NCBI RefSeq assembly: GCF_016127575.1
Contig: NZ_CP066020.1
Coordinates: forward strand, 60,001 to 92,000
Origin: Cupriavidus necator
GTDB taxonomy: Bacteria; Pseudomonadota; Gammaproteobacteria; Burkholderiales; Burkholderiaceae
Length of the DNA: 32,000 nucleotides
Reading direction: 5' to 3'
The notes below the pieces were generated by a model. That model ran no database searches. It saw nothing but the letters and a program-made list of their open reading frames with translations, and was not told the origin of the DNA. Shown piece by piece: positions 5,434 through 26,111 of the stretch (positions are counted from its first letter, which is position 1; each line of letters opens with the position of its first letter). Position numbers and translations under genes: made by a program.

Positions 5434-5553
5434 TCGCAACTATGCCGCGTTCACGGCAATGCCGATCAAGCTGGGATCGGATCACGATGATGCTTATAGA
5501 GAGCCCAGCAGGAGGTCATTCCCAAAGTCGCCGGATCGGCATAGTTTTAATGG

Positions 5554-5797: not shown

Positions 5798-5908
5798 TAT
5801 ATGCCCTTCCTGACTATATCGGGTAATGAGGGATTTGCCTCCGTGCTCGTCCGATGCGCACTTGTTGTGGAGCCATCCCCCGTCACTACCCGACATAGTT
5901 TCGTGGCC

Positions 5909-9083: not shown

Positions 9084-9173
9084 GATGGACTCCTTCCCGG
9101 ATGCTCTGGGGCTGAAGGAAGGAGTCAAGACTATCTCTATCTCCGTGCATCCGTTTGCCCATGAAATAGAGAG

Positions 9174-10486
9174 GCCTCTTTTGAATTTCAAGTGGGTGGT
9201 ATCGTGGCGGGTTTCAGGTAAAGAGCAACAAGAGCGATGCATAGCAAACTGTTTGAAGCAGCCCTTGGCATAAGCGATCCGTGGTTCGTCCGGGAAGTCG
9301 ACTTCAACGCGCAAACCAAGACGTTGACGATCCAGATTGACTTTGTCGCCGGCAGCCGCTTTTCCCACCCGGAGGTCGCCGGTGGGCACCCGGTTCACGA
9401 CACGGTGACCAAACGCTATCGGCACCTGAACTTCTTCGAGCACGACTGCTATCTGGAAGTCCGCACGCCACGCGTGAAGCTTCCCGACGGCCGCGTGGTG
9501 TTGGTCGAGCCGGACTGGGCTGGCAAGCTCTCTGGCTTCACGTTGCTGTTTGAAGCCATGGTGGTGGCGCTTGCGCAGCAGATGCCGTTTTCTGCTGTAG
9601 CCAGAACGGTGGGTGAGTCGTGGCATCGCGTGTACGCTATCTGCGAGCGCTATGTCGACCTCGCGGTGGCCGAACTCGATCTGGCCGGCGTGACCGCTGC
9701 CGCCGTTGACGAAACGTCCTACAGGCGCGGTCACAACTACCTGACGCTTGTCGCTGATGCCGACGCGCGTAAGGTCGTGTTTGTGACCGAAGGCAAGGAT
9801 GCTGCCACGGTTGGCAAGTTCGCTGCACATCTGCGCGAGAACAACGCTGCGCCTGAGCAGATCGGGGTGGTCAGTATCGACATGTCGCCGGCGTTCATCA
9901 AGGGCGTCAGCGAGCATTTGCCCAACGCGCGCATCACCTTCGACAAGTTCCATGTCGTGGCTCACGCTTCTGCAGCCGTGGACAAGACCCGGCGTATCGA
10001 ACAGAAGACCGATCCAAGCCTCAAAGGCCTGCGCTGGACGCTGCTCAAGGATCGCGACGGGTTGCCAGCCGCGCAGCGTGCCGATCTCGACGCGTTGATC
10101 GCCAACGTCACGACCAAACGCACTGCCCGTGCCTGGCTGTATCGCGAGCAGTTGCGCGAAATCCTTGAGCGCAAGCAGATCAACGTTGTTTCCGCAATGC
10201 TCGAGCAGTGGTGCACGAACGTCATGCGATCCAAGGTCGAGCCAATGAAGGAGGTCGCGCGCATGATCCGCAAGCATTTCGACGGTATCGTTGCATGGAC
10301 CCAGACGCGCCAGACCAATGGCTTCCTGGAGGCGCTCAACGGCCTGTTCCAAGCCGCCAAGCGCAAGGCCCGCGGTTATGTGAGCTTCAAAACCATGCGC
10401 ACCGTGATCTTCCTGATCGCCGGAAAGCTCGACTTCTCCGCGATCAACCCGCATGCCGCATAACCCACTCATTTTTCAAAAGAGCC
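9174..10486 (+). mobile_element. ISL3-family insertion sequence (1313 bp)
   Basis: The 24-bp imperfect IRs are GCCTCTTTTGAATTTCAAGTGGGT (9174-9197) and the reverse complement of 10463-10486, GGCTCTTTTGAAAAATGAGTGGGT (18/24). An 8-bp direct duplication ATAGAGAG lies at 9166-9173 and 10487-10494. There is a single 408-aa transposase gene. Confidence 0.85.
9237..10463 (+). CDS. ISL3-family transposase
   Basis: MHSKLFEAALGISDPWFVREVDFNAQTKTLTIQIDF...VDETSYRRGHNYLTLVADA...VSIDMSPAFIKGV...FDKFHVV...TNGFLEALNGLFQAAKRKARGY is the characteristic ISL3 layout and motif set. Confidence 0.9.
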   Translation: MHSKLFEAALGISDPWFVREVDFNAQTKTLTIQIDFVAGSRFSHPEVAGGHPVHDTVTKRYRHLNFFEHDCYLEVRTPRVKLPDGRVVLVEPDWAGKLSGFTLLFEAMVVALAQQMPFSAVARTVGESWHRVYAICERYVDLAVAELDLAGVTAAAVDETSYRRGHNYLTLVADADARKVVFVTEGKDAATVGKFAAHLRENNAAPEQIGVVSIDMSPAFIKGVSEHLPNARITFDKFHVVAHASAAVDKTRRIEQKTDPSLKGLRWTLLKDRDGLPAAQRADLDALIANVTTKRTARAWLYREQLREILERKQINVVSAMLEQWCTNVMRSKVEPMKEVARMIRKHFDGIVAWTQTRQTNGFLEALNGLFQAAKRKARGYVSFKTMRTVIFLIAGKLDFSAINPHAA

Positions 10487-10534
10487 ATAGAGAGCTATCT
10501 TTCGATTACAAGACATAGTCGGGAAGGGCATATA

Positions 10535-11323
10535 GTGCCTCAGCACGTGCGGCGTCACTCGTTTCTTTCGCAGCGAAGGACATCCCATGGCAGCCTGGGT
10601 AGCGTACTTTTTCAGGAGACGTTGTACCGCGTCCGGACTGAGATGTCCACCTCGAACACTCGGAAATAGCGCGTCGCTGTTGGGTGTGCGAGGCTCTTTC
10701 ATCCAAGCTTTTAGAATAGCGGCGGTCTCCTTGCTAAAAGGGGTAACGCGCTGTTTTCGACCTTTACCCATAACATCAATGTGCGCGCCTGCGCCGAGGG
10801 TCACGTCCTCGCGTGTGAGGCCGGTCATTTCCGACACACGAAGTCCCGTCTCCACACCCAGTCGGAGTAACGCATGATCGCGACGACCACACCAGGTGCG
10901 CTTATCGGGTGCAGCGAGCAGCGCCTTGACTTCCGGCCGTGTCAGAAAGTGAATGAGCCTGCGATCGTAGCGTTTGTTGGGCATCGACAGCACGCGCTGG
11001 ATCTGCGCGGAATACGCGGGCGTCTCGAAGGCCGCGTAACGGAAGAACGAGCGAATCGCTGTCAGTCGCAGATTTCGGGTGCGGACACTGATAGCCCGGG
11101 TCTTCTCCAGATCATTCAGAAATGCTGTCACGAGCGGCGCATTGATGTCCTCAAATGCCAGATGATCCGGCGGTTTGTGCAGACGCTTGTAGGCAAAACG
11201 AAGCAGCAGCCTGAACGTGTCCCGATAGGAACTGATGGTGTGCGGACTGGCCTGCCGTTGTTGCATGAGACGTTCCGTAAAGAACCGCTGCACTAATGAT
11301 GGGAAACCGACGGTAGATTTCAT
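10535..11323 (-). pseudogene. ritC: ritC3 N-terminal fragment, ending at H-V-L-R-H
   Basis: MKSTVGFPSLVQRFFTERLMQQRQASPHTISSYRDTF...GKGRKQRVTPF...RVTPHVLRH then runs into the RIT2 terminal IR (translated YMPFPTMS...). The start overlaps the ritB3 stop (ATGA at 11320-11323). Confidence 0.8.
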
Positions 11324-12252
11324 GACATATCCTTCCAGCGACGCTCCAGGCGCTTCATCGCCTGCTTCATGAGCTCTGGGTGCTGCTCGACATACCAGTA
11401 TGTATCTCTCGCCCACTGGTGCCCGAGGAACGTCGACAGCACCGGTAACCAACGCACCGGGTCTTTACCCGACCGGTCTAATCTCGCCAGCGTCGTGACC
11501 GCAAATAAATGGCGATAGTCGATCAGGCGGGGAGCGCGCTTTGCTGACGAATCGCGAAGACCGATTTCCCGTGTGAGCGCCGTAAATGTATGAGAAACCA
11601 TGTCTCCACTGAGTGGCTTGCCTTGCGAAGTGATGAACACATGGGTTTCCGGGCGCCCCGCAAGACATCGCGCGCGACGTCGAAGATAGTCTGCAAGTGC
11701 ATCTCGAGTGGAGGAATGAATAGGAACCCACCTCGACTTTCCAAATTTGCTTCCCCGCACCGTCAGTACGCATTCTTTCAAGTCAACGTCTTCGAGTTCC
11801 AGATTGACCGCTTCGCCGGGGCGCAACCCCGTGACGCTTAGCAGTCCTATCAGCGTAAAATATGTCCACCGCCGCAGTCCCGATTCCGGAGGAAGAGCCA
11901 GCGCGGCAGCCAATATCTTCTGGGTTTCCTCATCGGTGTAAAGGTAGGGAGCACGCCGATGATACCGGTGCGGCAACAATTCGGCCCGTGGAATCTCTGT
12001 ATGCGGATCGAAGGCACTCAGATAGCGTGCAAAGCCACGCACCACACCTAATCGCTGAGCCCAGATCACCGGTTGAACCGACGGGGACTTTTGTGCCCAG
12101 GTCAACGCCAGTGACGCGCTGATGTGAGAGGCCCGATGTCGTTCCATAAAGCAGACGAAGTCTTCCAGACGTTGGCCTGCTTCATGGAGTTTGAATCCCA
12201 GACGACGACGCATCGTCAGGTATTCTTCCATTGATTTGCGTAACGTACTCAT
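11320..12252 (-). CDS. ritB: RitB-type tyrosine recombinase (RIT3)
   Basis: MSTLRKSMEEYLTMRRRLGFKLHEAGQ...; motifs TGLRPGE, GSKFGKSRWVPIH, IDYRH and LGHQWARDTYWY. There is an ATGA overlap with the ritA3 stop. Confidence 0.85.
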   Translation of the reverse strand: MSTLRKSMEEYLTMRRRLGFKLHEAGQRLEDFVCFMERHRASHISASLALTWAQKSPSVQPVIWAQRLGVVRGFARYLSAFDPHTEIPRAELLPHRYHRRAPYLYTDEETQKILAAALALPPESGLRRWTYFTLIGLLSVTGLRPGEAVNLELEDVDLKECVLTVRGSKFGKSRWVPIHSSTRDALADYLRRRARCLAGRPETHVFITSQGKPLSGDMVSHTFTALTREIGLRDSSAKRAPRLIDYRHLFAVTTLARLDRSGKDPVRWLPVLSTFLGHQWARDTYWYVEQHPELMKQAMKRLERRWKDMS

Positions 12253-13481
12253 GATCGGGGGCTCGGCCATGGCGGCGCCAAGGTCCGCAGTGAATCCAGA
12301 TCGACCTTCGCGTATATTCTCGTCGAGTCGGGACTTTTGTGGCGCAAGACTTCGCTAATCTCGGCCAGCGAGGATCCTTGACGCAGCATCTGTGTCGCTA
12401 ACGCATGCCGGAATTGATGGGTTCCTTTCCTCAACGAATCGATACCAGCCCGCTCTAGAGCGTATCTGACAACATTGCATACCGCTTTTTCCGTCTTGAA
12501 CCCACGAATCGGCGCGTTTATACGCAGGAAGACACTTCGACTCTCAGAATCCGCGCGACCGTTTTTCAGGTAGTCGGCGATCGCTTCACCCACCGGCGCG
12601 AGTAATGGCAACGGCGACTCCTGACCGCCTTTTCCGTGAATGTTCAACGTGCCCGTTTCCCAATCGATGTCATCCAACGTCAAGGAAACCACCTCGCCGC
12701 TCCGCAACCCCAGCCGGGCAAGGAGGAGCAGAATCGCATAATCTCGGCGGCCGACGGGGCGACGGCGGTCGCAACTGGCCAACGCTCGCCTAGCATACTC
12801 AGGGGATATCGCTTTGGGGATTGATGCCATTGACCAGTGGGCGACCCTGGGGATCGCTGCAGCGAGGTCAAGCTTGATCAAGCCACGATAACGCGCATAC
12901 TGCAAAAACGAGCGCAAGACCTTTGCGATCGATTGCGCTCGCCCTGGACTTTGAGTGGCCTCATGCTGAACAAAGTCGATGATCTCGCGGGCACTGAGAT
13001 CCGAGAGCCGCGTCGCCCCATCACCGAATTGCTTTGTTAAAAACAAATGCGCACACCACCGATATTTCCTGATCGTCGTGGCTGCCAAGCCTCGTTCCTG
13101 GTGCAGATACAAAGAGTATCCGTTTACCAATTTTTCAACTGGTGTCTGCGCACCGGACGCTTCCTTTGCTACGATTCCATTTTCTTGAAGCAATTGTACA
13201 AAGCGTCTTACCGCATATCTCGCGCCGTTCCGATGACAGCGGTGGTGTTCTCGGTAGCGCAGATAACGTTGCGCAGTTTCATGAGTCACTTCCTCGATCG
13301 ACATTTTCTTGCACTTGAGCCACACGCTGAAATCGGCAACGAGAAGCAAGTGTCTGCGAATAGACTCCTGCGCGTAACCTTGATCATTCAGCAGACCTTC
13401 AAATGCACCGAGGTGTTCAGCAAGGGGGCCCTCGGGTGTATCGAGTGAGTGCGACCGCGTTTTTTGGTACAACTTCTCCAT
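12249..13481 (-). CDS. ritA: RitA-type tyrosine recombinase (RIT3)
   Basis: MEKLYQKTRSHSLDTPEGPLAEHLGAFEGLLNDQGYA...; motifs LARLGLRSGE, HQFRH and LRHKSPDSTRIYAKV. The start is chosen by colinearity with RitA1/RitA4; the track ORF begins at 13517. Confidence 0.8.
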   Translation of the reverse strand: MEKLYQKTRSHSLDTPEGPLAEHLGAFEGLLNDQGYAQESIRRHLLLVADFSVWLKCKKMSIEEVTHETAQRYLRYREHHRCHRNGARYAVRRFVQLLQENGIVAKEASGAQTPVEKLVNGYSLYLHQERGLAATTIRKYRWCAHLFLTKQFGDGATRLSDLSAREIIDFVQHEATQSPGRAQSIAKVLRSFLQYARYRGLIKLDLAAAIPRVAHWSMASIPKAISPEYARRALASCDRRRPVGRRDYAILLLLARLGLRSGEVVSLTLDDIDWETGTLNIHGKGGQESPLPLLAPVGEAIADYLKNGRADSESRSVFLRINAPIRGFKTEKAVCNVVRYALERAGIDSLRKGTHQFRHALATQMLRQGSSLAEISEVLRHKSPDSTRIYAKVDLDSLRTLAPPWPSPRS

Positions 13482-13609
13482 GACCTTCGCCTCTTGTAAA
13501 AGCGGGTCTAACATCAATCAGACTATGCCGATCATCCTTCGTTCATTGCCTTGAATTTGCGGCTCGCCACGTCCAAATCGAACATAGTTAACTACGCGGC
13601 ATAGTTGCG

Positions 13610-14098
13610 AAACTTAGAGGATCGAATCACCAGTCCCTCTGGGGTGATGTCTTCGTAGCGTAGGCCGATGGCTTCCGATACCCTTAGCCCGGTGCAAGCA
13701 AGTAATGCGAACAGTGTGCTGTAGGTATATCGCCGCAACGTTTCACGCCCCGACTGGGAGGCTGCCTGAACGAGGTGGCGGACCTCGTCCGTGGAAAAGA
13801 TATAAGGGATAGGTCGAATCCGTTGGCTGCTGCCGAAGACGGGCGGAGGCACTTCATGGCGAGAATCTTCGGCCCGTGCGTACCGAGCAAATCGAATCAC
13901 CTCACCGAGTCGGCGAGCTCGTCGAGGTGCCAAGCGTGCCAATCCAGCCCATTCGATGGCGGTATCGGCGCACACGTGGGATTTACCCCTTGCGTCTGAG
14001 TAGGCGGCGAAGCTGCGCAACAGATTGCCCTGCGACTTAAGTTCAAATCCACAGGCACGGCGCACTTCCAGATATGACTGCACGGTTTGCTTTAACAT
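13610..14098 (-). pseudogene. ritB: ritB4 N-terminal fragment, ending at ...IRSSKF
   Basis: MLKQTVQSYLEVRRACGFELKSQGN...TGLRVSEAIGLRYEDITPEGLVIRSSKF then runs into the RIT3 terminal IR (translated RNYAA*). The start overlaps the ritA4 stop. Confidence 0.8.
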
Positions 14099-15339
14099 GG
14101 CAGTTCCTCCGGCCATGGTTGGGCAATCTGCCGCAACGCGGCGATGTCCACTTTTGCATAAATTTGCGTAGTCGCGACAGATTGATGCCGTAGAACGGCC
14201 GCAATATCCTGCAGGGACGCACCTTGCCCCAACATCGACGTTGCAACCGAATGGCGCAGCACATGGGCGGCGCCTCGGCTCGAGCAGACAACACCAGCTC
14301 GGCGCATTGCCTTCTTAACGATGATGGAGATGGCAGCATGATTTGCAAAGGCTTGAAACGGGGCACACGCGCGGACGAATACCGTATCGGTATCGGTTCG
14401 AGGCCGTCCCTGTCGAAGATAATCCACAATGGCCTGCCCGACTTCCTGTGTCAGAGGCAGGAGTGTCTGCCGCCCGTTTTTGCCTGAGACCGAGATCGAG
14501 GCATCTTTCCAATCGATATCCCCGATGCGCAGATGCCAAATATCGCCGGCGCGAAGCCCCAAACGCGCCAGCAGCAGCAAAATTGCACGGTCCCTCTGAC
14601 CGACTGGCGACGCTGTGTCACATGAAGCGATGACGCGTTCGACTTCGTCGAGTTGCAAATATCGCGGCAGCGTTGACAGGCTCCAATGTGCCAAGACGGG
14701 TATCGCTGCCTCCAGACCGGCAGCGCACTTGCCTTCGGCTATCAGAAACCGAACGAGCATGCGTAATGCCGTCGTGCAGTGCTTTGCCGCCGCCCATCCC
14801 TTCTTCATGCTTTGCTCAAGGATGAACTGGCGCAAGTCCATTGCATTCAGTTTGCCGAGGTCATCCCCTCGTCTGAATAGATCTCGAAGCGCAATACCGT
14901 GGTTGTACAAAGTGGCATCACTGGTTCCACGCTGTTGGCGCATCCATTGGCAGAATGCGAAGAACTGAACTGATTCCAGGTCCGCTGCAAGCGCAGTAAA
15001 ACCGATTGCCCGGGTGCTGATTCCCCCTTGGTACGTCAGGAACATCCGCGCACCCCGTAACGATACGATGCGCCGCTGATGCCCAAAGCCCTGGCATTGG
15101 CATCGACTCAAATGTTCAGCGAAACGTTCAAGAGTCAATTCGTTAAAACTGGGAAGCGGTATGCCTTCCCGATTCGCCCAACACAGGAAGTGCGATGCCG
15201 CAGCAATACGGGTGCAAATAGAACTCTTCGCGTAACCGAGCTGCTCCAGGTATTGAGAGAAGCCTTCAAGCAGCGGGCCGCCTGGGCGAGAGAGAAGCAG
15301 TTGAACGTGCGAAGGGGATTTGAAGTACTGACTAAGCAT
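14092..15339 (-). CDS. ritA: RitA-type tyrosine recombinase (RIT4)
   Basis: MLSQYFKSPSHVQLLLSRPGGPLLEGFSQYLEQLGYA...; motifs LARLGLRAGD, HVLRH and LRHQSVATTQIYAKV. The ATG at 15339 is preceded by AGGAGGA. Confidence 0.8.
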   Translation of the reverse strand: MLSQYFKSPSHVQLLLSRPGGPLLEGFSQYLEQLGYAKSSICTRIAAASHFLCWANREGIPLPSFNELTLERFAEHLSRCQCQGFGHQRRIVSLRGARMFLTYQGGISTRAIGFTALAADLESVQFFAFCQWMRQQRGTSDATLYNHGIALRDLFRRGDDLGKLNAMDLRQFILEQSMKKGWAAAKHCTTALRMLVRFLIAEGKCAAGLEAAIPVLAHWSLSTLPRYLQLDEVERVIASCDTASPVGQRDRAILLLLARLGLRAGDIWHLRIGDIDWKDASISVSGKNGRQTLLPLTQEVGQAIVDYLRQGRPRTDTDTVFVRACAPFQAFANHAAISIIVKKAMRRAGVVCSSRGAAHVLRHSVATSMLGQGASLQDIAAVLRHQSVATTQIYAKVDIAALRQIAQPWPEELPC

Positions 15340-16178: not shown

Positions 16179-16732
16179 TCAAGCAATACGGACGGACTGC
16201 GGGCGGGCAAGCTCATTCATGTGGTTGAGCACGCCCGCGCGGATTGCCACCTCGGTCGCCTGGGAGCCTACCTTGCGCGCCCACAGAGAATGACCGGTGA
16301 GTGTCTTGAGTCGATACATCAGGTTCTCGACCAGCGAGCGACGGTGGTACCCGCTGTCCTTTTTCCATTCGCGTCTGCTGCTCGTTGCAATGGCGTCGAT
16401 GGCCGCATTGCGCCATGCCGCACCGGGCGTGGTTTCAGGCCACGGCATCGCGCCCTCGCGCGGCGGAATCGACGGTTGCGCGCCTGTGGCGGCAATCACT
16501 GCATGGCACGACTTGGTGTCGTACGCGCCATCACCGCGAACGATGTCCACGAGCGTGTCGGGCGGCAACTGGTCGAGCAAATCAGGCAACACGTCGGCAT
16601 CGCCGACGTCCTGATGGGTCATCAACGCCGCGCATATCTGGCCGCTCTTGGCGTCCATCGCCAGATGGACTTTGCGCCACGTGCGACGCTTGGAATACCC
16701 GTGCTTGCGCACCTTCCACTCGCCCTCGCCAA
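16179..16732 (-). pseudogene. IS903-like DDE transposase, C-terminal fragment (GEGEWKVRKHG... onward)
   Basis: ...GEGEWKVRKHGYSKRRTWRKVHLAMDAKSGQICAALMTHQDVGDADVLPDLLDQL...RGDGAYDTKSCH...REWKKDSGYHRRSLVENLMYRLKTL... is the typical IS903/IS5-family catalytic core. Confidence 0.85.
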
Positions 16733-16905
16733 TACGCGCAAGAGAGAAAAAATGGACATCAGCCAGAGCCCTGCAAATACTAGAATCAGCAGACTACCGG
16801 GTGTCCATAGAGTCAGCAGAAAAAAATGGACACAACGACCGTCAGAATGTCCATTTCCAGTCGCAAGTTTCGCAGCTGATTTCGAGTGAAGATGCACGCC
16901 GCAAT

Positions 16906-17268
16906 CTAGCGTAGCTGCAAGGGCAGGACGCTACCGCCACGCAGCGCGGCCAGTTCCTTGCGCAGGCGGAACACCTGATGGAGCAGGGCAAGTTCACGAG
17001 CCAGCGATTCGTCAAGCTGTGCCTGCAGATCCTTCGCGTCGCCCTTTGCGCGGTTCAGACGCTCGGTGAGTTCGAGCTTCGGGCGCCCGGCCACTGCATT
17101 GGCCGCGTCGATCGCTGCGATCAGTTCGGTGAACTGTGGGCGCGACTTCTTGATGCTGCCCTTCTTGCGGCCCGCCTCGATCGCCACGGTGTCGTTGTTG
17201 ATACGCGCACCCTTGCGGTTCTTCAGCCGCTCAAGAGCGGCATAGTAGTCGGTCATGGCGCCGCTCAT
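16906..17268 (-). CDS. Small (120 aa) coiled-coil protein, fourth gene of the recombination module (position of GinD / Tn554 TnpC)
   Basis: MSGAMTDYYAALERLKNRKGARINNDTVAIEAGRKKGSIKK...LQAQLDESLARELALLHQVFRLRKELAALRG; the ATG overlaps the upstream gene's stop (ATGA at 17265-17268). The function is inferred from position only. Confidence 0.55.
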   Translation of the reverse strand: MSGAMTDYYAALERLKNRKGARINNDTVAIEAGRKKGSIKKSRPQFTELIAAIDAANAVAGRPKLELTERLNRAKGDAKDLQAQLDESLARELALLHQVFRLRKELAALRGGSVLPLQLR

Positions 17269-19145
17269 GCTGCCTCCGATTTGATCAGTTTCTCCTGCGC
17301 GTCAAGCAGTCGTTGCAGCGCCTGCGCCTCGATACGGTATTCGACGCTCGTCTCATCGACCGCGCGCAGCTTCGCGACCGTAACCTGCTGCGCGTTGATC
17401 ACGCGACGAAGCTTCGATGGCACGACCACGAGGTTACGGCAGTCCGATTCAAGACAATCCAGACGCATCCAGTCGAGTGGCGTCGACTTGCACTGCTCGA
17501 CACTGGCGCAGCCGCCCAGCACCGTCTCGCGGTACGCGAGCTCGCCCTTCACGAACATCCTCATCGTCTGCTCGCGTGAGTAGACCGACACAGGCGAGGC
17601 CTGCACGGCACGGCTCTGCGTCCACGCTGCGTGGCCGCCGAACAGCCGCACGTCAGAGAACAGCACCTGCTCGGCGTACGCAAGGTACTCGGACAGGCCC
17701 TGTGCCCCGGCCCATTCGTTCGCGAAGTGGGTCCTATCAGTGTCGATGAAGCCCTTCGCGAATGCCGAGCCACGAGCGTAGTACATGCTCATCTCCTGCG
17801 TGATGTGCTGCAGCTGACGTTTGAGCGTCGGCAGCGTCACCAGTCCGCTGCGGTGCGCGTATAACGCGAGCGTCCTCCGAAGCTGGTGCCGCGTGAACGG
17901 CCACTGCCGCCCGACCGCGTACTTCGGCTCGTCTTCCCACGCGCGGTGCATGTCGACACGCTTTAGTTCAGCGATGTCCTCGACCGTGATCGTCGGGAAA
18001 ACGCGCTCACGAAAGGCTTCGATATCGTTATGAACGGTACTCGCCGCCCGGTTTGCTACGTATCCCATATGCAGTCCCATCCGGCAGAACAGCAGGTGCG
18101 AACCGTCCGTCGATTCGGCGTAGCCCTGCGCGCCGTGTGCACGGTGTGCCTCTCCCGATAGCCGTTGTGCGAGCCCGACAGCACGGGCGGCGAGCGGGCT
18201 GGTCACCCAGCGTGCGCGCCTGGGACGCCCGCCCGACAGCTTGGTCGTGATGCCCTCGATGGTGTAGTGGGTTACGCCATCCAGACGGGTCTCGCTCAGG
18301 CAGTCGTATGGGAGGCTCTCTGCTTCTGTCGCACGCATGCCGGTGAACGACAGGATGACAAGCTGGCATAGCGCCCTGATCGACGCCACAAGCGACGACG
18401 CGACGTAAGGGACTGCCTTGTACCCGAAGTGTGCAGCTACCCTTACCAGTTCTGAAGGGACGGACGGACTCTCGCCGGCATACAGTCGTGCGAGGTAGTC
18501 TGACAGCACGTCGACGATCCCTTCAGCGACGCCGAGGTCATGTTCACAGGCCAACAGGAAGTGCTGGTAGATCCGCGTCGGGACGACAGGGTGTTGTGAG
18601 TTTCCAGCACGTTGCGCGAAGCGTTCGAGCAGAGGCTTGTGCAGTTGTGCCAGTGGTACGCGCAGCCCTGTGGTCCCGACGCCCAGACGGTGAAGCTTCA
18701 CCAGAACTGAATGAAGGCGCTGGGCCTTCCTCTCCATCCCGGGTTGCGCCACATAGTCGAGGACAATAGCGACGCTGGACAGCCCCTCGTAGAGAGTAAG
18801 CTCACGTTCGGCGGCAAAGAACGCGAATCCCTTCAGGCAGGCTGAGCCAGAGTTAAGCGTACTGGACGCCGGTACCGTGTCGGTCGCTTCGTGCATCAGA
18901 AAGTAGATCACCTGCTTCCACTGTCGCGTAGTCGCTTCTGAAAGGGCTCGACTTGCGCCGTCAGGCAGGTGGCCCCTGAAGTAGATATGGGTGCGCGGCC
19001 CAATCGTATATGCCCGGATGTCCCAGGCAGCGTCACTAAACAGCGAAACAGCGTTCGCAGCCTTGTCGCGCGTAGCCACTGTATCGTCCTCGACACGATA
19101 CCAGTCGGGGCGCTCAGCGATCGGCGCGATCAGCGTGTTGTTCAT
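17265..19145 (-). CDS. Large (626 aa) tyrosine recombinase, third gene of the module
   Basis: Tyrosine-recombinase signature read by eye: SFTGMRATEAESL (Arg I), FTRHQLRRTLA (H-x-x-R), LQHITQEMSMYYARG (His/Tyr). There is an ATGA overlap with the upstream gene at 19142-19145. Confidence 0.75.
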   Translation of the reverse strand: MNNTLIAPIAERPDWYRVEDDTVATRDKAANAVSLFSDAAWDIRAYTIGPRTHIYFRGHLPDGASRALSEATTRQWKQVIYFLMHEATDTVPASSTLNSGSACLKGFAFFAAERELTLYEGLSSVAIVLDYVAQPGMERKAQRLHSVLVKLHRLGVGTTGLRVPLAQLHKPLLERFAQRAGNSQHPVVPTRIYQHFLLACEHDLGVAEGIVDVLSDYLARLYAGESPSVPSELVRVAAHFGYKAVPYVASSLVASIRALCQLVILSFTGMRATEAESLPYDCLSETRLDGVTHYTIEGITTKLSGGRPRRARWVTSPLAARAVGLAQRLSGEAHRAHGAQGYAESTDGSHLLFCRMGLHMGYVANRAASTVHNDIEAFRERVFPTITVEDIAELKRVDMHRAWEDEPKYAVGRQWPFTRHQLRRTLALYAHRSGLVTLPTLKRQLQHITQEMSMYYARGSAFAKGFIDTDRTHFANEWAGAQGLSEYLAYAEQVLFSDVRLFGGHAAWTQSRAVQASPVSVYSREQTMRMFVKGELAYRETVLGGCASVEQCKSTPLDWMRLDCLESDCRNLVVVPSKLRRVINAQQVTVAKLRAVDETSVEYRIEAQALQRLLDAQEKLIKSEAA

Positions 19146-21022
19146 GCCACCCCCAATTCGTAAAGCTGGTCGAGCTTGGCCGACCAGAAAGCGTCCAGAT
19201 TCCCATCGACATCAACGTCCTGCTCGATCTGATCGACCAGCGCGGCGTCGCGCTTACGCAGTTCATCCAGCAGGAAGTCAATGCGGCGCAGCACCGCGCC
19301 GAACGAACTGTCGTATTGCTCGATCGAGTCGGCACGTCCGCTCACGAGCCTGACGCAATGACGGCAGCCCAGCAGCTTGTGGATGTCGGCGGCGTCAGCG
19401 TGCACGCGATACTGGTCGCAGAAGAGACATCCTTCGGTCGAGCGGCAGTCCGGCTTCACGGTGGCTGAAGCGGCGATCGGCACTGGCTTGCGGAATTCGA
19501 TGCAGACGCCCACCGCGCTCCTGATGCTGCCAGCCGGGTCGTCGCCGGTCTTCAGCACAGCCTTCTCGACCGAAGCGAGGAACACGCCCATCTCAGCCTT
19601 GTGCGCGGCGTCCGTGCCGTTCGAGTACGAACGCAACGCTGTTTCCACCGAGTGCCCCATCAGCCTGGCTGCGATGACAGGGCCGTGGTTACTTACCGCC
19701 CAATCCTGCTTTGCCGCACGCCACTGACGTGCGCTAATGCGCGGCAGCACGATCCCGAGCGTGTCGAGTCGATCATAAAGAAGGGTCAGAAATTGGGTTG
19801 GGAGAGGCATGGGCCGTCGTCGCTGCGGGCTATGTCCGACTACGATGAACAACGCGTCGCAGCCTGCGTCCTGCACCAGATACTCGCGCAATGCGAGATA
19901 CGCCTTGAGCTTCGGCATGAAGCCCAGCGAGACGGTGAACGTAATCTCTTTAGCCCCTGCACGATACTTGACCTCGCGAAACTTCTGACGCACAACCGAC
20001 GCATCCTGCAGGCTCGCGGCAAGCTCCAGACTCCACTTCATGGCCAGCAGCTGTGCGAGGTTGACGCCCGTTTCGGCCAGAAACAGCGCGGCAAAGCAAA
20101 AGACGGCCATCGAAGCGTGTGAGCGCCGGATCTCTGACTGCGCGTCCTCGTTCGCCGCCGCAAGATGTTTAGCCGCACTTCTGGCGATGTCCCCCGAACG
20201 CTTAGAAGGGTTCTTGGCTTCAGCCTCAGCCATGCGCATCGTGAGTTCTTCCCGGGTGCGCGGCTCTCCCGTTTCCAGATTCCAGCCAGCCAGGCCGTGA
20301 GAGCCGTCGCCTCCGCGACGATGGTGTCTGCGCGGAACAAGGCAAAGACTCTCACCGCGCGCTGTGGTCACGTGTACCGGGTACGGCTTGAAGTCGAGCA
20401 CCAGCGTGCTGATACCGCTGAAGAGCGCGTCAGCCCACGCGAGCAGGGTGGCCTGGGCTTCGGCGTCAGGCACCGCCGTCGGCACCGAAGCATCCCGTTG
20501 GCGGCCCAGCACCCTCGCGTCGGCGCAGAAGTCGTCGTTTCGGAATAACTCACGTAGCATCGACAACAGACGGCGCTGACTGATGTCGACGGAATTGCGC
20601 TTCAGGTTGCCCAGCGAGACCTGTTCGCGCCTCTCACGGAAGTAGCGATGAACCGCTTCCGCCGTAGTCTTCTCGTCACAGAGCACCTGATGCAAGCCCT
20701 GCCTGTCGGCCCAGTTAACGAACTCAAGCACGACGCGCAAAGCACCGTCGACCGTCCTTGGACGCATCGCGCCAAGGGTCATGCGCCCGGAAAGCTGCGT
20801 CACCAGCAGGCGTACGACCCTGGCGCGTTCACTGCTGAAGCTTGTGGGGTCGAAAGTGCGTCGCGTACACCGCAGGCTCGACGCGTCACGCTTCAAGTAG
20901 CAAATCTGCCCGATATCGGAACGTCCGCTCATGCCTTCCCACCTGAGCAGCGCGCGCTCGGGATGTAGCAGTGTTGTACCCTCCGCGAGCGGCATGCGCA
21001 CTTCTTCGTACTGGCGGCTCAT
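19142..21022 (-). CDS. Large (626 aa) tyrosine-recombinase-like protein, second gene of the module
   Basis: The C-terminal region has SARQWRAAKQDW and LMGHSVETALRSYSNG (His/Tyr box). The box-I-like segment reads LAETGVNLAQLLAMKW, with Asn where Arg I is expected. There is an ATGA overlap with the upstream gene remnant at 21019-21022. Confidence 0.65.
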   Translation of the reverse strand: MSRQYEEVRMPLAEGTTLLHPERALLRWEGMSGRSDIGQICYLKRDASSLRCTRRTFDPTSFSSERARVVRLLVTQLSGRMTLGAMRPRTVDGALRVVLEFVNWADRQGLHQVLCDEKTTAEAVHRYFRERREQVSLGNLKRNSVDISQRRLLSMLRELFRNDDFCADARVLGRQRDASVPTAVPDAEAQATLLAWADALFSGISTLVLDFKPYPVHVTTARGESLCLVPRRHHRRGGDGSHGLAGWNLETGEPRTREELTMRMAEAEAKNPSKRSGDIARSAAKHLAAANEDAQSEIRRSHASMAVFCFAALFLAETGVNLAQLLAMKWSLELAASLQDASVVRQKFREVKYRAGAKEITFTVSLGFMPKLKAYLALREYLVQDAGCDALFIVVGHSPQRRRPMPLPTQFLTLLYDRLDTLGIVLPRISARQWRAAKQDWAVSNHGPVIAARLMGHSVETALRSYSNGTDAAHKAEMGVFLASVEKAVLKTGDDPAGSIRSAVGVCIEFRKPVPIAASATVKPDCRSTEGCLFCDQYRVHADAADIHKLLGCRHCVRLVSGRADSIEQYDSSFGAVLRRIDFLLDELRKRDAALVDQIEQDVDVDGNLDAFWSAKLDQLYELGVA

Positions 21023-21133
21023 GCAGCCACCGCCGTGTCAAGGGTGCGCGCGACCAGCGTCGACAGGTGCACGCCCCAGCCATCCTGGACAGCGTCGAAC
21101 AGCTTGCAATTCTCGCGGTAACCGAGGTAGCGC
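21019..21133 (-). pseudogene. C-terminal remnant of the first module recombinase (…RY LGYRENCKLFDAVQDGWGVHLSTLVARTLDTAVAA*)
   Basis: My translation of the minus strand is in frame with the stop at 21019-21021, which overlaps the next gene's ATG. It resumes at GCGCTA|C, the same core at which the N-terminal part breaks at 24686-24691. Confidence 0.65.
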
Positions 21134-21157
21134 AAATGTGCTGCAGCACATTTGCGC
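21130..21157. repeat. Perfect 28-bp palindrome at the RIT5 ritA-side junction
   Basis: GCGCAAATGTGCTGCAGCACATTTGCGC; both arms end in the GCGC(TA) core. Confidence 0.9.
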
Positions 21158-21298
21158 TATTACCGGCCGTAGATCTTTATGTAGAGTAGCAACGTCAAAC
21201 GCTTCGTGAAGCAAGGCGTCTTGTTTGAACTACTGCACATAAAGTTTCATGATGGGCTCCTGGCGGCCATCGGGATCGCCTTTGTGAGGAGTTCGATC

Positions 21299-22561
21299 AT
21301 GGAGAAGTCAACCCGTCAAGTTTCAAGCCACCTGCCGTTGCAGCAGTTCGTCGCTGGCGCCGTGAGCGAGCTGGAGAGGCTAGGCTACAGCAGGAAATCG
21401 CTTTGGCGCTATCGCGTCGCCTGGCGTCATCTCATTGAGTTTTGTCATGAGATGAGCCTGGGCGATAAGTACTCCCTGGAGCTGGCGAAACGGTTTTGCT
21501 CTACGTATCAAGTTCGTGCTGACGAATGCCTGAACTCTGGCCAGGGGTGGCGGCGGAATATCGTGTTTGCCCTCAAGGTTCTCGATGGCTTTGCGCATGA
21601 GGGGCATATTGTGCGCACCGTCACCGATATCAAGACGATACAAGTTCCCGAACCCATGAGCACGGCATTGCGCGACTATGAACTGTACTGCCGGGATCGC
21701 CGTCATCTTCGTACAACGACCCTTCGCGCGCGGATGCGGGTGATAGCGTTATTCGCGGATTTCCTTGGTTCAAGGAACATCACGTTTTTTGATCAGGTGC
21801 AGCCGGCCGATCTCTGCGCATTTGTGACCGCGCAACATCGTCTGTCGGCGAAGTCAGTCTCGCGCATCGTTTCCGATGTGCGTTGCTTTCTGCGCTTTCT
21901 TCTCATGCGAGGAATTCTGCAGCAGGATCTCAGCCATGTATTGCCGGTGGTCCACGTTCCACGCGATGCGACTATTCCATCGGTCTGGGACCCGGAAGTC
22001 CTGACCAAGCTGCTCGAAGCCGTTGATAGAACCTCACCCAAAGGCAAGCGCGATTACGCCATCTTTCTGCTTGCCTGTCGCCTCGGATTGAGAGTGGGCG
22101 ATATTCGCGCACTCTCCCTCGACGATCTGAAGTGGGAAACGGCCACAATAGAGGTTAGGCAGTCGAAGACCCTCACACCTCTTTGTTTGCCATTGACGGA
22201 GGAAGTTGGCGAAGCGCTGATTGACTATCTGAGATCGGGCCGTCCTCAATCGGATCATCGAGAAGTGTTCCTCACGTTGAACGCTCCCTTCCTACCCTTC
22301 CGCGAGGCCGACAGCCTATATTGGATCGTCCGTCATTGGAAGGCCATCGCGGGGATTCACTTCAGGACTCCACAACGCCATGGTTTGCACTCTCTACGCC
22401 ACACACTCGCGACACGATTGCTCCATGAACAGACGCCGTTTCAAGTCATCAGCGACATCCTGGGGCATGCGACGACAGCCTCGACGTTGATCTACGCGAA
22501 GACCGACGTGGAAACCCTGCGCACTGCCGCGTTGAACACCGAGAAGATGCGCCATGTCTAG
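21299..22561 (+). CDS. ritA: RitA-type tyrosine recombinase (RIT5)
   Basis: MEKSTRQVSSHLPLQQFVAGAVSELERLGYS...; motifs ACRLGLRVGD, HSLRH and LGHATTASTLIYAKT. A GAGGA RBS lies upstream of the ATG at 21299; the track ORF starts at a GTG at 21206. Confidence 0.85.
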   Translation: MEKSTRQVSSHLPLQQFVAGAVSELERLGYSRKSLWRYRVAWRHLIEFCHEMSLGDKYSLELAKRFCSTYQVRADECLNSGQGWRRNIVFALKVLDGFAHEGHIVRTVTDIKTIQVPEPMSTALRDYELYCRDRRHLRTTTLRARMRVIALFADFLGSRNITFFDQVQPADLCAFVTAQHRLSAKSVSRIVSDVRCFLRFLLMRGILQQDLSHVLPVVHVPRDATIPSVWDPEVLTKLLEAVDRTSPKGKRDYAIFLLACRLGLRVGDIRALSLDDLKWETATIEVRQSKTLTPLCLPLTEEVGEALIDYLRSGRPQSDHREVFLTLNAPFLPFREADSLYWIVRHWKAIAGIHFRTPQRHGLHSLRHTLATRLLHEQTPFQVISDILGHATTASTLIYAKTDVETLRTAALNTEKMRHV

Positions 22562-23537
22562 TAGCAAATTCAAGGGGCATTTCCAGAGCGCTGTCGGCCC
22601 ACTCATGGAACAGTTCGTCCAGGAGAAACAGGCCTGTGGGTACCGATATAATGCGCAAGCCCGCTTGCTGGCATGCTTTGACCGCTTCCTGAGCGATGAA
22701 GCGCTATCGGCATGCGAGCTACCGCGCTCAATCAGCCGAAAGTGGACCGCCAAGCGGCCCCACGAGAGCAAGAGCACCCACGATCAGCGTATCGGCGCAG
22801 TTCGCCAATTTGCCCTGTTCATGTGCCGGCTGGGGTATGCCGCTGATGTGCCGGATCGGTCCCTGACGGCAAGGCGTACGAGCAGCTTCTCTCCGCGCAT
22901 CCTGACCCACGCTGAGATTCAGCGGCTGTTCCGCGCGGCTGACCAGCTCACGCCGACCGCACTTTCGCCAATGCGGCATCTCGTTATGCCGGAAGTATTG
23001 CGACTACTGTATGGCTGCGGCCTGAGGGTGGGCGAGGTGCTTCACCTGCGCGTGGCCGATGTGGACCTCGAACGGGGAATCCTGACGGTGCGTGATGGCA
23101 AATTTCGAAAGGACAGGCTCGTGCCACCAGCCTTGCCCCTGGTACAGCGCCTTCGAGTCTACGCACAAGTCATGGGCGATCGCCCGTCCGATGCCTACTT
23201 CTTCCCTTCGCCATCAGACGGCCCGTTGAGCCACTCGTCCATCTACTGGCTGTACCGGGAGCTGCTGTTGCGCTCTGGGATCCCGCACGCCGGTAGAGGC
23301 AAGGGTCCGCGCGTACATGATCTACGCCACGCGTATGCCGTGCATGCGTTGCTTCGGTGGTGCCAGGATGGAGCTGACCTCGATGCGAAGCTCCCGGTAC
23401 TGGCGACCTACATGGGACATCAGTCCCTAGCCGGAACGCAGCGCTACCTGCATCTGATTGCCGAACTGTTTCCGGAGATCACGGCACGTACCGGCGCCGC
23501 CTTTGGTGATGTCATCCCGCGGAGGAACGGATCATGA
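22554..23537 (+). CDS. ritB: RitB-type tyrosine recombinase (RIT5)
   Basis: MSSSKFKGHFQSAVGPLMEQFVQEKQACGYRYN...; motifs CGLRVGE, DGKFRKDRLVPP, HDLRH and MGHQSLAGTQRYLH. It has an 8-nt overlap with ritA5. Confidence 0.85.
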   Translation: MSSSKFKGHFQSAVGPLMEQFVQEKQACGYRYNAQARLLACFDRFLSDEALSACELPRSISRKWTAKRPHESKSTHDQRIGAVRQFALFMCRLGYAADVPDRSLTARRTSSFSPRILTHAEIQRLFRAADQLTPTALSPMRHLVMPEVLRLLYGCGLRVGEVLHLRVADVDLERGILTVRDGKFRKDRLVPPALPLVQRLRVYAQVMGDRPSDAYFFPSPSDGPLSHSSIYWLYRELLLRSGIPHAGRGKGPRVHDLRHAYAVHALLRWCQDGADLDAKLPVLATYMGHQSLAGTQRYLHLIAELFPEITARTGAAFGDVIPRRNGS

Positions 23538-24544
23538 AACCGACGGATTTCTCCATGCTCGTGACCAGCTTCCTGACGCACCATCTGGCCGCACAGCGCA
23601 ACCTGAGCCCCAACACGATCAAGGCCTATCGCGACGTGTTCACCCTGCTGCTGCGATACTGTCGTGACGTGCGGGGAATCGCACTGGAGCGTCTGTCTCT
23701 GGCACAGATCGACGTAGGCCTGGTCGAGGCATTCCTTGATCACCTGGCCAACGACCGGCATGTTTCGGTCAGCACGCAGAATCATCGCCTCGCGGCATTG
23801 CACGCGTTCTTCCGCTACGTACAGTCGGAAGTACCCGAGCGCCTGCTGCAGTGTCAGCAGGTCCTCGCGATTCCGCTGCGGCGACAGCCGCGCGCCAGCG
23901 TCGGTTATCTCCCCAAGGAATACCTTGCACAGCTTCTCGCACAACCGGACCTGCGTACGTCTGAGGGCTGCCGCGATGCAGTGATGTTGAGCGTACTCTA
24001 TGACACCGGCGCCCGGGTACAGGAGTTGATTGACCTGAACGCCGGGGACGTGCGGCTGGATCCTCCAGCGCAGGTGCGGCTCATGGGAAAGGGTCGAAAG
24101 CCGCGCGCCGTGCCCTTGATGGACTCGACAGTCGAACTGCTGCTCCAGTATCGACGCGATAATCACCTCGATCGTCCTGAATACGCCGACAAGCCACTCT
24201 TCCAGAACCGGCAAGGTACACGGTTATCGCGCTCGGGTGTTCGCTATCTCCTGCAAAAGTATGTGATTCCCGTACGGCGAAGTCACCCCGACTTCACGCA
24301 GCGGGTAAGTCCTCACAGTTTGAGGCACACCAAGGGAATGCACCTGCTGCAGAGTGGCGTACCGCTCGAGATCATCCGCGACTTCCTCGGTCACGTCGAT
24401 GTGAAGACAACCGAGATTTATGCTCGCGCAAATCTTGAGATGAAGCGCAAGGCCCTCGAAAAAGCCACCGACGGTGCGTCGCTTCCAAAGATCCCGTCCT
24501 GGCAGCAGAACAAAGCGCTTCTCGAGTGGCTGCATTCACTGTAG
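23534..24544 (+). CDS. ritC: RitC-type tyrosine recombinase (RIT5)
   Basis: MKPTDFSMLVTSFLTHHLAAQRNLSPNTIKAYRDVF...; motifs TGARVQE, GKGRKPRAVPL, HSLRH and LGHVDVKTTEIYARA. There is an ATGA overlap with ritB5. Confidence 0.85.
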   Translation: MKPTDFSMLVTSFLTHHLAAQRNLSPNTIKAYRDVFTLLLRYCRDVRGIALERLSLAQIDVGLVEAFLDHLANDRHVSVSTQNHRLAALHAFFRYVQSEVPERLLQCQQVLAIPLRRQPRASVGYLPKEYLAQLLAQPDLRTSEGCRDAVMLSVLYDTGARVQELIDLNAGDVRLDPPAQVRLMGKGRKPRAVPLMDSTVELLLQYRRDNHLDRPEYADKPLFQNRQGTRLSRSGVRYLLQKYVIPVRRSHPDFTQRVSPHSLRHTKGMHLLQSGVPLEIIRDFLGHVDVKTTEIYARANLEMKRKALEKATDGASLPKIPSWQQNKALLEWLHSL

Positions 24545-24685
24545 GACTGCGGAGGTTGCGCACGCTGTTTGTTGGCTGCGGGCCTCCCCATCTTGCCCAA
24601 CTTTTATGTAGAGTTTCTACGAGCGGAGACCTTTGCTATCGCGGGGCTGGATCCGATACTGCACATAAAAACTTTCGGCCGGTAA

Positions 24686-26040
24686 TAGCGCTCGGTCGTA
24701 GACGGTTGTACGTGCCACATCAACTGCCGCAACTGATCGAGCGCCCGCGTGTACTTCGTCTCATTCGCTGTCATCGTGTCGACCATGTTCAGCCCGTAGG
24801 TCGCGCGCAGATCGTGGAAACTGAACTCGTACCTGGGGTTGCCAAGCTGCACGCGCATCATGGGTAACAGTTCGTCCCTGATGAACTGGCGCACGGCCTG
24901 CCCTGTCTTGACGTGGCGGCGTACCTGCGGGCCAGTGCTGACCGGGCGGCGCGACGCGCGATCCTCGTAGAGCGGCGCACCGCGATAGCTGAGAAAGAGC
25001 GGCTGGACGGGATGATCGCCGCCGTCTGCCAGCTGGCGACGCTTGCGCGCGCGATCGCTGTGCACATAGGTGTAGAGCCGTTCATAGAAACTGCGCGGCA
25101 GGTGCAGCACGCCCTTGACCCCGCCCTTCGTGTCGATGCCCGTACCCGGCCCGCAGGCGAGACGGATGTCGTCGCCGTGAAACTCGCCCGGTTTGCGCAT
25201 CACGTGTCTCGCGCGCACGGTCAGTACCGTCTGAATGCGAGCGCCCGTCAACAGCGCGAACAGATGAACGAGCGTCATCTCGGTATTGCCGAGAGTGGCC
25301 AACGATTCAAGCAGCACCGACTGCTCGGCAGAGGGCAGCGGGCGCAAGCGACCACCGTCCTGGATGTGATCGTCCCACGGGTCATCTGCGCGCCGGCCAC
25401 TGATCGACAGGTCGGTGGTCTTGACCTCGATCGCGCGGCTGAAGCCCTTATGGTCTCTGAACTCGATGAAGCGGCCAGATTCGGCCCACGGCGCGTTCGC
25501 GGGCCTGAAGCCTGCCTCGGTCATGAGCCAGCGATAAAAGCGCACTACGGCGCCCATACGACGCCTGGCGACGCCCGGAGACAGTTCGCCTGCCTGCACG
25601 GCCAGCCTGATCGAGGCACTGTAGCGGTAGGTTGGACGTTGCCGCTTGTTCGCGGGAAATGCCAGCCAGTCAACGCCCTCGTTATCCAGATAACGACGGA
25701 ACGCCACCAGGTCGTCAGCAATGCTGGCGAACGTCAGCATGTTGGGCGACGGCTTCGACTCAATCATGTCGATGAGCCACAGGTTCGCCTCAGCCCACGG
25801 TGCGCCGTCAGCGAGCCGGACAACAGGAAAGAGAGGAAAGGTGCCTGTGATCCACTGCGGGCGGTCGTCGCGCCGCTTGCCGGTGTCAGGGTCTGCGAGT
25901 GGGACCGTGTGATAGATCGTGCCGCCCTCGGGCGTGGTAATGCTGACCGGCGTCGCGCCGGATGTGTTGCGGTCAACGACCTCGGTCAACGGCAGATGCC
26001 GGATGGTCGTTCGTCTTGCTGTCATCGCCCAGATCCTCAT
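24686..26040 (-). pseudogene. First module tyrosine recombinase, truncated inside the catalytic Tyr codon by RIT5
   Basis: Motifs LLTGARIQTVLTV (Arg I), FHDLRATYG (H-x-x-R) and MWHVQPSTTERY (His/Tyr). After ...TTERY the frame runs into the RIT5 terminal IR (YRPKVFMCSIG...*). ATG at 26040 or 26025. Confidence 0.75.
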
Positions 26041-26111
26041 GCTGTGTTTGAGTGGGCGTCCTCATTAACACAACGTGCGAGTATCAAGAAATCGTTCCTG
26101 GCTTGCGCATA

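Follow-up and report, generated by a model that had tools for sequence, protein, structure and literature searches.

What kind of mobile unit accounts for the cluster of four recombinase-like genes that interrupts a transposase gene on pHG1, the megaplasmid of Cupriavidus necator H16? The cluster lies within the 32-kb stretch of DNA analysed here (the window), which is 100% identical to positions 30178-62177 of NC_005241.1 and for which the RefSeq annotation lists two IS5 transposase fragments together with 'integrase', 'hypothetical protein' and 'site-specific integrase' genes, and marks no mobile element. A preliminary description had read the cluster as a cargo-less, GInt- or Tn554-like tyrosine-recombinase element inserted in an IS903-like transposase. 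Its observations were confirmed in every detail and the general class, a transposon-like unit with a small accessory protein beside several tyrosine recombinases, was right, but the family was wrong: each of the four proteins has its counterpart, in the same order, in the SE family, which was not among the candidates it named. We conclude that the element is very probably a cargo-free SE-family tyrosine-recombinase transposon, with the operon intA-tfp-intB-srap placed between short inverted repeats, belonging to a clade carried on plasmids and chromosomes of Burkholderiaceae.

Relationship of the four proteins to the SE core

SEs, described in 2022-2023, are an unusual class of 'copy-out' transposon driven by four proteins. 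Their core genes lie on one strand, in fixed order and at one end of the element, and encode IntA, Tfp (a recombinase fold without the RHRY motif), the large IntB and Srap (PMC10214605). IntA and IntB carry the RHRY catalytic residues, whilst Tfp and Srap are the family-specific markers. The pHG1 genes, here called A to D, are likewise confined to one strand (minus) in the order A-B-C-D, joined at A/B, B/C and C/D by 4-nt ATGA-type overlaps; this is the intA-tfp-intB-srap order, with overlapping frames, of SE-6283, SE-6945, SE-PaeBT2436 and SE-AmaTe101 (Nonaka/Yano; PMC9345347, PMC10214605). The coupling of the genes and the 626-, 626- and 120-aa products of B, C and D had been noted in the preliminary description and were reproduced.

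Comparisons were made with two SEs, SE-Pda04Ya311 on pAQU1 and SE-PaeBT2436 on pBT2436, and with a single GInt, that of E. coli O157 Sakai. Profile-profile alignment by hhalign paired all four proteins with their SE counterparts over nearly their full length: A with IntA (probability 99.7%, E 2e-26, 359 aligned columns), B with Tfp (98.8%, 1.4e-16, 466 columns), C with IntB (99.6%, 7e-24, 545 columns) and D with Srap (92.9%, 3.7e-7, 102 columns). Pairwise BLASTP matched C to SE IntB at 2e-13 and B to SE Tfp at 8e-6, the latter over a segment that holds the TGxN motif common to both. When hidden Markov models (HMMs) of the H16 families were scored against the SE-PaeBT2436 proteins at a database size of Z = 1.8e9, E-values of 3e-41 (IntA), 1e-17 (Tfp) and 1e-19 (IntB) were obtained. 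The same models gave no match to GInt or RIT (recombinase-in-trio) proteins, and a cross-pair control by hhalign, B against IntB, returned a probability of 0.35%. The profile and HMM matches, together with these null controls, therefore argue for membership of the SE family; judged by sequence, the element is nearer to the Pseudomonas SE than to the Vibrionaceae SE.

The distribution of catalytic residues agrees with this assignment. Invariant across the family alignments are R268, K305, H409, R412, H443 and Y452 of gene A and R271, K302, H420, R423, H447 and Y455/456 of gene C, so that both carry the full set, whilst gene B lacks the motif, having N321 in place of the first (box-I) catalytic Arg and having also lost the first His. 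SE Tfp likewise lacks the box-I Arg and has a Cys/His motif at the C-terminus, and the two proteins have in common both TGxN (TGxR in recombinases) and a C-terminal C-x4-GC-x2-C...H motif. The gene B product is presumably catalytically inactive; we word this cautiously because it retains a conserved His...Tyr pair (H457, Y466), as Tfp retains the Tyr. It is nevertheless predicted to adopt a tyrosine-recombinase fold: its AlphaFold2 model has a mean predicted local distance difference test score of 81.9, and its first 25 Foldseek matches in the PDB are all tyrosine recombinases, including XerA, Tn1549 Int, XerH, lambda Int and IntI. Against PDB chains, the profiles built for A and C gave nothing at E <= 1. 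Gene D combines an N-terminal helix-turn-helix-like segment with a coiled coil and a C-terminal VLPL, the same four residues with which pBT2436 Srap ends; Pfam and NCBIfam searches with D returned coiled-coil noise only.

Boundaries of the element and the interrupted gene

Freed of a secondary RIT insertion (described below), the element measures 5,821 bp and consists of the four recombination genes only, in agreement with the earlier estimate of about 5.8 kb without cargo (Table 1). Its plus-strand ends, TACGCGCAAG and CTTGCGCATA, form a 10-bp inverted repeat with 9 of 10 positions complementary, which was retained in all 24 copies described below. When seven copies carried by plasmids of Cupriavidus, Paraburkholderia and Caballeronia were aligned at both borders, similarity ran exactly from TATGCGCAAG to CTTGCGCGTA on the gene strand and the flanks were unrelated, which argues that these ends are not due to chance. 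Like the element, SEs have terminal inverted repeats that are short and imperfect, and each of their junctions has a 6-bp unit; their termini begin TAC... and mostly end ...GTA, and the outermost bases on pHG1 are 5'-TAT...GTA-3'. The 173 bp of non-coding DNA beyond gene D contain four subterminal repeats (AAATGGACA / TGTCCATTT, two in each orientation). Four of the five ATGGACA matches in the window fall within them, and we regard these repeats as candidate protein-binding sites. No sigma-70 consensus promoter was found upstream of gene A, nor were terminators found at either end of the element.

The insertion in an IS903-like transposase is borne out by models of the IS5 family (IS903 group) that match both halves of the gene, positions 1-122 of the NCBIfam transpos_IS5_2 profile being found in one and 129-289 in the other. 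Deletion of the element plus one hexamer restores a single open, in-frame transposase, ...DSTGLKVFG-EGEWKVRKHG..., whose reading across the junction is ...STGLKVFGEGEWKVRKHG..., so the two halves rejoin as KVFG-EGEW, as had been anticipated. The TTGGCG hexamer seen on both sides of the element occurs once in uninterrupted relatives of the target insertion sequence (IS), which are 82-87% identical and collinear across the site. The expectation that such a copy would define the ends and core of a little-studied class very precisely has thus been upheld and the term 'little-studied' is fair, but a cargo-less SE, SE-AmaTe101 (6,353 bp), had already been published. At 5.8 kb, the pHG1 element is smaller than any listed SE.

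Table 1. Features of the pHG1 element, its target gene and the nested insertion (positions within the 32-kb window).
Feature	Position	Strand	Remarks
Whole element, including RIT insert	16733..26111	-	9,379 bp; homology to other copies begins and ends exactly here
Gene A, 5' part up to catalytic Tyr codon (IntA-like tyrosine recombinase)	24692..26040	-	Reconstructed protein of 487 aa
Gene A, 3' part beyond RIT	21019..21133	-	Contiguous with 5' part in all uninterrupted copies; stop overlaps gene B start
Gene B (Tfp-like, 626 aa)	19142..21022	-	hhalign against SE Tfp; AlphaFold2/Foldseek
Gene C (IntB-like large tyrosine recombinase, 626 aa)	17265..19145	-	Catalytic residues; BLASTP and hhalign against SE IntB
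Gene D (Srap-like, 120 aa)	16906..17268	-	hhalign against Srap
intA-proximal terminal inverted repeat, counterpart of SE motif C	26102..26111	-	5'-TATGCGCAAG on gene strand (CTTGCGCATA on plus strand); invariant in 7 aligned copies, present in all 24
srap-proximal terminal inverted repeat, counterpart of SE motif C'	16733..16742	-	...CTTGCGCGTA-3' on gene strand (TACGCGCAAG on plus strand); end of homology in all copies
6-bp core adjoining intA end	26112..26117	.	CGCCAA on plus strand, TTGGCG on gene strand
6-bp core adjoining srap end	16727..16732	.	CGCCAA on plus strand, TTGGCG on gene strand
Four subterminal repeats, srap-proximal non-coding end	16747..16856	.	AAATGGACA / TGTCCATTT, two per orientation; kept in all 7 aligned copies
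IS5-family (IS903-group) transposase, C-terminal half (interrupted target)	16179..16732	-	Pfam DDE_Tnp_1; NCBIfam transpos_IS5_2, 2e-58
Same transposase, N-terminal half (target)	26112..26550	-	Pfam DDE_Tnp_1_5, 1.6e-43
Nested RIT, secondary insertion outside the module	21134..24691	+	3,558 bp; three Phage_integrase proteins; 35-nt inverted repeats
RIT genes	ritA 21206/21299-22561; ritB 22554-23537; ritC 23534-24544	+	Pfam Phage_integrase

Other copies and their targets

The search for further copies with the same ends, suggested in the preliminary description, was productive. Plasmids and a scan of one genome per species yielded 24 copies, that of pHG1 included, for which both borders are available (designated by L numbers below, with H16 for the pHG1 copy). 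All are from Burkholderiaceae, occupy about 20 different sites, begin and end at exactly the same bases and measure 5,782-6,044 bp unless a secondary insertion is present. Four draft genomes hold contigs that consist of the element alone (5,782-6,049 bp), which usually betrays a collapsed repeat, and several genomes have two copies; both findings point to multicopy repeats. One genomic copy, L018, is 98.8% identical to the pHG1 element and interrupts a different IS5 transposase at the homologous codon; the 40 nt of flank visible on either side are clearly diverged. Intact copies are also carried by pBPHYT01 of P. phytofirmans PsJN, by pMTS2 of Cupriavidus sp. P-10 and by 'Burkholderiaceae bacterium 16'.

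Insertions recur at the same position in homologous but diverged genes, mostly recombinase genes of other mobile elements. The targets comprise IS5-family transposases (H16, L018), IS91-family transposases, in which insertion follows ...ADIFRR (L002, L031, L038), a Tn3-family transposase (L022), helix-turn-helix plus rve-type transposases (L003, L004, L030, L033, L036) and DUF3701 phage-type integrases (L006, L035, L041). This pattern may stem from sequence preference, from tolerance of insertions in such genes, or from both. Similarity of the target sites to the joined element ends, inspected by eye, was not convincing.

In L022 (Paraburkholderia sp. SIMBA_030, positions 13390-13417) the terminal 10 bp of the srap end and 4 bp of the core stand in tandem, as CTTGCGCATA-ACGG-CTTGCGCATA-ACGGCA, a duplication that could be the trace of an aberrant recombination event; at 7.9 kb, this copy must carry an internal insertion too.

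The 6-bp unit and the proposed mode of movement

The two 6-mers that flank a copy agree at all six positions in 15 of the 24 copies, at five in 4, at four in 3 and at three in 2. Since L004 shares its site with L036 and L020 with L028, a count of distinct insertions gives 14 perfect pairs out of about 20 sites. Empty sites hold the core once. Where homologous targets differ in their core, each copy has its own core on both sides, as for H16 (TTGGCG) and L018 (ACGGCG) or L004 (GGCCAA) and L033 (GCGCGA). Within one homologous target, L007 (CTGTCC/CTGGCC) and L039 (CTGGCC/CTGTCC) have reciprocal cores, and both 6-mers of L030 (GGCCGA/GGCCCA) are found in nature in empty alleles. The unequal 6-mers of 9 of the 24 copies thus look like natural alleles of the target.

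In SEs, the 6-bp core of the target is retained at attL, whilst attR receives a 6-bp 'fingerprint' from the left flank of the donor, and the reciprocal core signature has been used to infer donor-recipient relations among SE copies in Aeromonas. Recombination between attL and attR of SEs yields a nicked double-stranded circle derived from one strand only and leaves no empty site. By analogy with SEs and GInts, the catalytic recombinases A and C, aided by the presumably non-catalytic B and the small DNA-binding D and perhaps by protein binding at the ATGGACA repeats, would synapse the two ends of the pHG1 element, and a circular copy, possibly drawn from one strand, would be made with its ends joined through a 6-bp spacer. 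The circle junction would then recombine with a target over a 6-bp overlap, leaving one 6-mer on each side without DNA synthesis. Targets whose core matches the spacer brought along from the last site would be favoured, so that the element would hop between alleles or copies of one target; the 6-mer pairs, usually identical or one to two bases apart, fit such a preference.

The same repeats could alternatively be true target-site duplications, produced by staggered cleavage and repair, in which case the unequal pairs would have arisen by later homologous recombination between copies resident in different alleles. In 15 of 24 copies the 6-bp direct repeats are perfect and agree with the allele of the local target, also when the cores of homologous targets differ, which speaks for such duplication, and the L007/L039 pair fits both accounts, as reciprocal cores are expected of a spacer carried from the donor site and look alike if copies recombined after true duplication. 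The element, however, encodes only proteins of tyrosine-recombinase type, which exchange strands without synthesis; experiments have shown that homologous SEs and GInts bring a 6-bp spacer with them from the donor; and 9 copies that are unequal at one to three positions are too many for point mutation. We therefore consider duplication unlikely, and prefer a spacer carried by the element.

Weighing SE membership against other families

Several results count against the SE assignment. Searches of Pfam and NCBIfam gave no match for A or B even at E 10, and only a weak, sub-threshold Phage_integrase match for C (E 0.047). The SE profiles were built from two sequences each, and the similarity of D to Srap is modest, at 25 bits by HMM, or E 1.8 at database scale. 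The terminal repeats are shorter, at 10 bp, than the 13-19 bp reported for SEs. The nearest empty allele of L030 has the srap-side rather than the intA-side core, the opposite of the published SE polarity, although alleles of both kinds occur in nature. In metagenome contigs, the junction CTTGCGCRTA-N6-TATGCGCAAG expected of a circle was matched eight times (L096-L103), but we take these to be unrelated palindromes because none resembles the element, so no circular junction was seen. Finally, identity of the two flanking 6-mers is far more frequent than in published SE examples, and for this reason the integration rule may differ from that of SEs; the frequency of identical flanks suggests either hopping between identical copies of a target or a stronger need for core identity, as has been demonstrated experimentally for GInts. 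The eight junction matches include two pairs of contigs that each derive from one locus, and these near-palindromes might be operator-like sites.

The families to which the element might otherwise belong fare considerably worse. A Tn554-family transposon (tnpA-tnpB-tnpC) with an extra gene would account for one ordinary and one ~630-aa recombinase, a ~120-aa protein and a 6-bp core by the ends: Tn554 has a normal-sized and a ~630-aa tyrosine recombinase, a ~125-aa protein, a 6-bp core that is transferred with the element and, like the pHG1 element, no DDE transposase, and published work treats TnpC as the structural counterpart of Srap and notes a similar footprint. This likeness is one of description, as is the separation by gene content. 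Tn554 has three genes, not four, and no counterpart of Tfp, whereas on pHG1 a Tfp homologue stands between the two recombinases; it has no operon comparable to the four-gene one, is known from Firmicutes and Actinobacteria, and uses a single preferred att site in its Gram-positive hosts. We regard this origin as very improbable.

Even less credit can be given to the idea of a genomic island of the GInt (ginABCD) type from which the cargo was lost. GInts resemble the pHG1 element in having three recombinase-fold proteins and a small, TnpC-like fourth, in 6-nt staggered exchange with imperfect flanking repeats and in integration aided by core identity, and they have been reported in Betaproteobacteria. 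In GInts, however, ginA and ginB are catalytic and the non-catalytic ginC is third, ahead of the small ginD (PMC5385486; PMC10214605, Fig. 1 legend), whilst on pHG1 it is the second protein that is without the first catalytic Arg. GInts are also tripartite, made up of the gin operon, a cargo of 2.5-70 kb and a 3' end rich in AT, and they insert at a small number of places in the chromosome, ssb among them (Bardaji et al. 2017, PMC5385486), whereas the pHG1 element has neither cargo nor an AT-rich 3' end, only the short non-coding segment after gene D. The relationship to GinABCD proposed in the preliminary description found no support in the profile check, hhalign of A-D against GinA-D of the one GInt comparator, Sakai, giving probabilities of 0.1-0.4% (below 0.5% for all four); BLASTP against the Sakai proteins was likewise null, and the strong similarity is to SE proteins instead. 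On gene order, null profiles, null BLASTP and the lack of a tripartite structure, membership was rejected against the Sakai GInt, and the possibility of a cargo-less GInt is largely refuted.

RIT elements (ritABC), which are abundant on pHG1, are also compact, cargo-free multi-recombinase units between inverted repeats. They differ in having three ordinary-sized recombinases that match Pfam Phage_integrase, inverted repeats of ~35 nt, neither Tfp nor Srap, and no profile similarity to A-D. The NCBIfam 'gamma-mobile-trio' models (GmtY/GmtZ) did not match the pHG1 element or the two SEs, and no match to the Sakai GInt exceeded the cut-off.

That the genes are a dead remnant or chance cluster of recombinase genes in the pHG1 'junkyard' rather than a discrete mobile unit, a suspicion raised by the crowding of the window with RITs and IS fragments and by the broken gene A, deserves almost no credence and is refuted for the family by precise ends kept in 24 copies at different sites, by clean in-frame restoration of the target gene and by a 98.8%-identical intact copy elsewhere.

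Host range and significance

Idola et al., whose set comprises 283 Tfp and 308 Srap sequences, reported Tfp/Srap blocks only in Gammaproteobacteria, with none detected by PSI-BLAST among alpha- and betaproteobacterial RefSeq proteins, and cautioned that PSI-BLAST might miss distant clades. This narrow host range has been treated as notable and attributed to the complexity of the four-protein reaction. The close copies found here lie outside it, in the Betaproteobacteria Cupriavidus, Paraburkholderia, Caballeronia and Burkholderia, and the gene B family comprises 91 clusters at 90% identity, all named ones being from Burkholderiaceae. Rhodocyclales, Oxalobacteraceae and other groups have more distant members. 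When 1.84 billion representatives were searched with a profile, 1,051 clusters were recovered at E <= 1e-3, 596 of them at E <= 1e-30, and the species-level genome scan gave 74 loci. These include Rhodocyclaceae, Azospira, Dechloromonas, Duganella, Roseateles, Herbaspirillum and Thiobacillus, as well as Methylococcaceae, Acinetobacter, Halomonas, Alcanivorax, Marinobacter and Alteromonas, and extend to metagenome-assembled genomes (MAGs) assigned to Nitrospirota, Geobacteraceae, Verrucomicrobia, Campylobacterales and Gracilibacteria. The arrangement of four genes was verified in Dechloromonas, Acinetobacter, a Nitrospirota MAG, a Campylobacterales MAG and a metagenomic relative with 35% identity.

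The pHG1 element is thus part of a large, previously unsurveyed set of relatives. Our literature search found no report of SEs outside Gammaproteobacteria, and a 2012 survey of the recombinases of pHG1 described its RITs but not the four-gene unit; to our knowledge, this is the first SE documented in Betaproteobacteria. As the module is common in soil Betaproteobacteria and present further afield, the statement on SE host range needs revision and the family needs to be re-surveyed by profile methods. What is new is the host range, the minimal IS-like clade, its choice of targets and its mostly identical cores; this is an extension rather than a new kind of system, because a cargo-less SE and the general mechanism had already been published.

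The Burkholderiaceae copies differ from published SEs in being often multicopy and IS-like and in lying inside transposase or integrase genes of other elements. It is conceivable, although on balance we doubt it, that they form a distinct IS-like branch of the SEs, cargo-free and multicopy, which homes to fixed positions in IS5, IS91, Tn3, rve-type and DUF3701-integrase genes and needs near-identity between the 6-bp spacer and the target core, so that its insertions look like target-site duplications. In that case, transposition by the SE-type set of four proteins would be widespread among bacteria rather than a gammaproteobacterial speciality, with modules also in Rhodocyclales, Campylobacterales and a Nitrospirota MAG, and the clade would be its simplest experimental model. 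The clade in any case offers clean material on which to study the 6-bp rule and the recombination sites, its elements being 5.8 kb and cargo-free with exact ends, more than 20 independent insertions, matching empty sites and conserved subterminal repeats.

Some of the more distant matches have features of their own. The 35%-identical locus L013 (positions 3926-13899 of metagenome contig ERZ5073135) has an extra 111-aa open reading frame (ORF) upstream of intA and adjoins a truncated D-tyrosyl-tRNA deacylase gene downstream of dnaA-dnaN-gyrB; the OEP/CzcB/ACR_tran efflux genes that follow may be cargo. Seven representatives of 810-1,140 aa (P0213, P0215, P0230, P0251, P0297, P0303 and P0338) have the Tfp-like region at the C-terminus and several matched stretches, and may be IntA-Tfp fusions or merged gene calls. 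Two weak full-length Tfp-like matches (22-23% identity; L080, L082) come from a contig labelled as a Helicobacter pylori PMSS1 MAG and from a Candidatus Gracilibacteria MAG.

The nested RIT and the surroundings on pHG1

The insertion within the pHG1 copy is a RIT, its three proteins (451/420, 327 and 336 aa, all Phage_integrase) being of ordinary size and encoded by adjacent, overlapping genes. Its 35-nt inverted repeats lie at 21154-21188 and 24657-24691, and TAGCGC is present on both sides (21128-21133 and 24686-24691). At one end only, a perfect 20-bp palindrome, AAATGTGCTGCAGCACATTT (21134-21153), separates the flank from the repeat; it seems to be part of the RIT terminus because it is also found beside a RIT-like end (CGGTAATAG) in Paraburkholderia sp. 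SIMBA_030, in the left flank of the L031 copy. The RIT is absent from 12 other plasmid copies and from L018.

The 478-aa recombinase that the preliminary description had recognised as split by this RIT is a chimera (ORF 24604-26040) of about 451 native residues and a RIT-derived tail; with the RIT removed, gene A encodes 487 aa and ends in a stop codon that overlaps the gene B start. Insertion occurred directly after the codon for the catalytic Tyr, and exchanged the last 35 residues for 26 unrelated ones. Genes B, C and D are intact. Because its IntA has had the C-terminus replaced, the pHG1 copy may be immobile or dependent on help in trans.

For the annotation of pHG1, the element accounts for four genes labelled 'integrase' or 'hypothetical' and for the two IS5 fragments. 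Elsewhere in the window are further RIT trios at 2135-5072 (+), 5909-9083 (-) and 10469-13481 (-), a copy of ISAe1 between two of them (9237-10463), and, at 14092-15339, a lone integrase in this recombinase-rich pHG1 'junkyard'.

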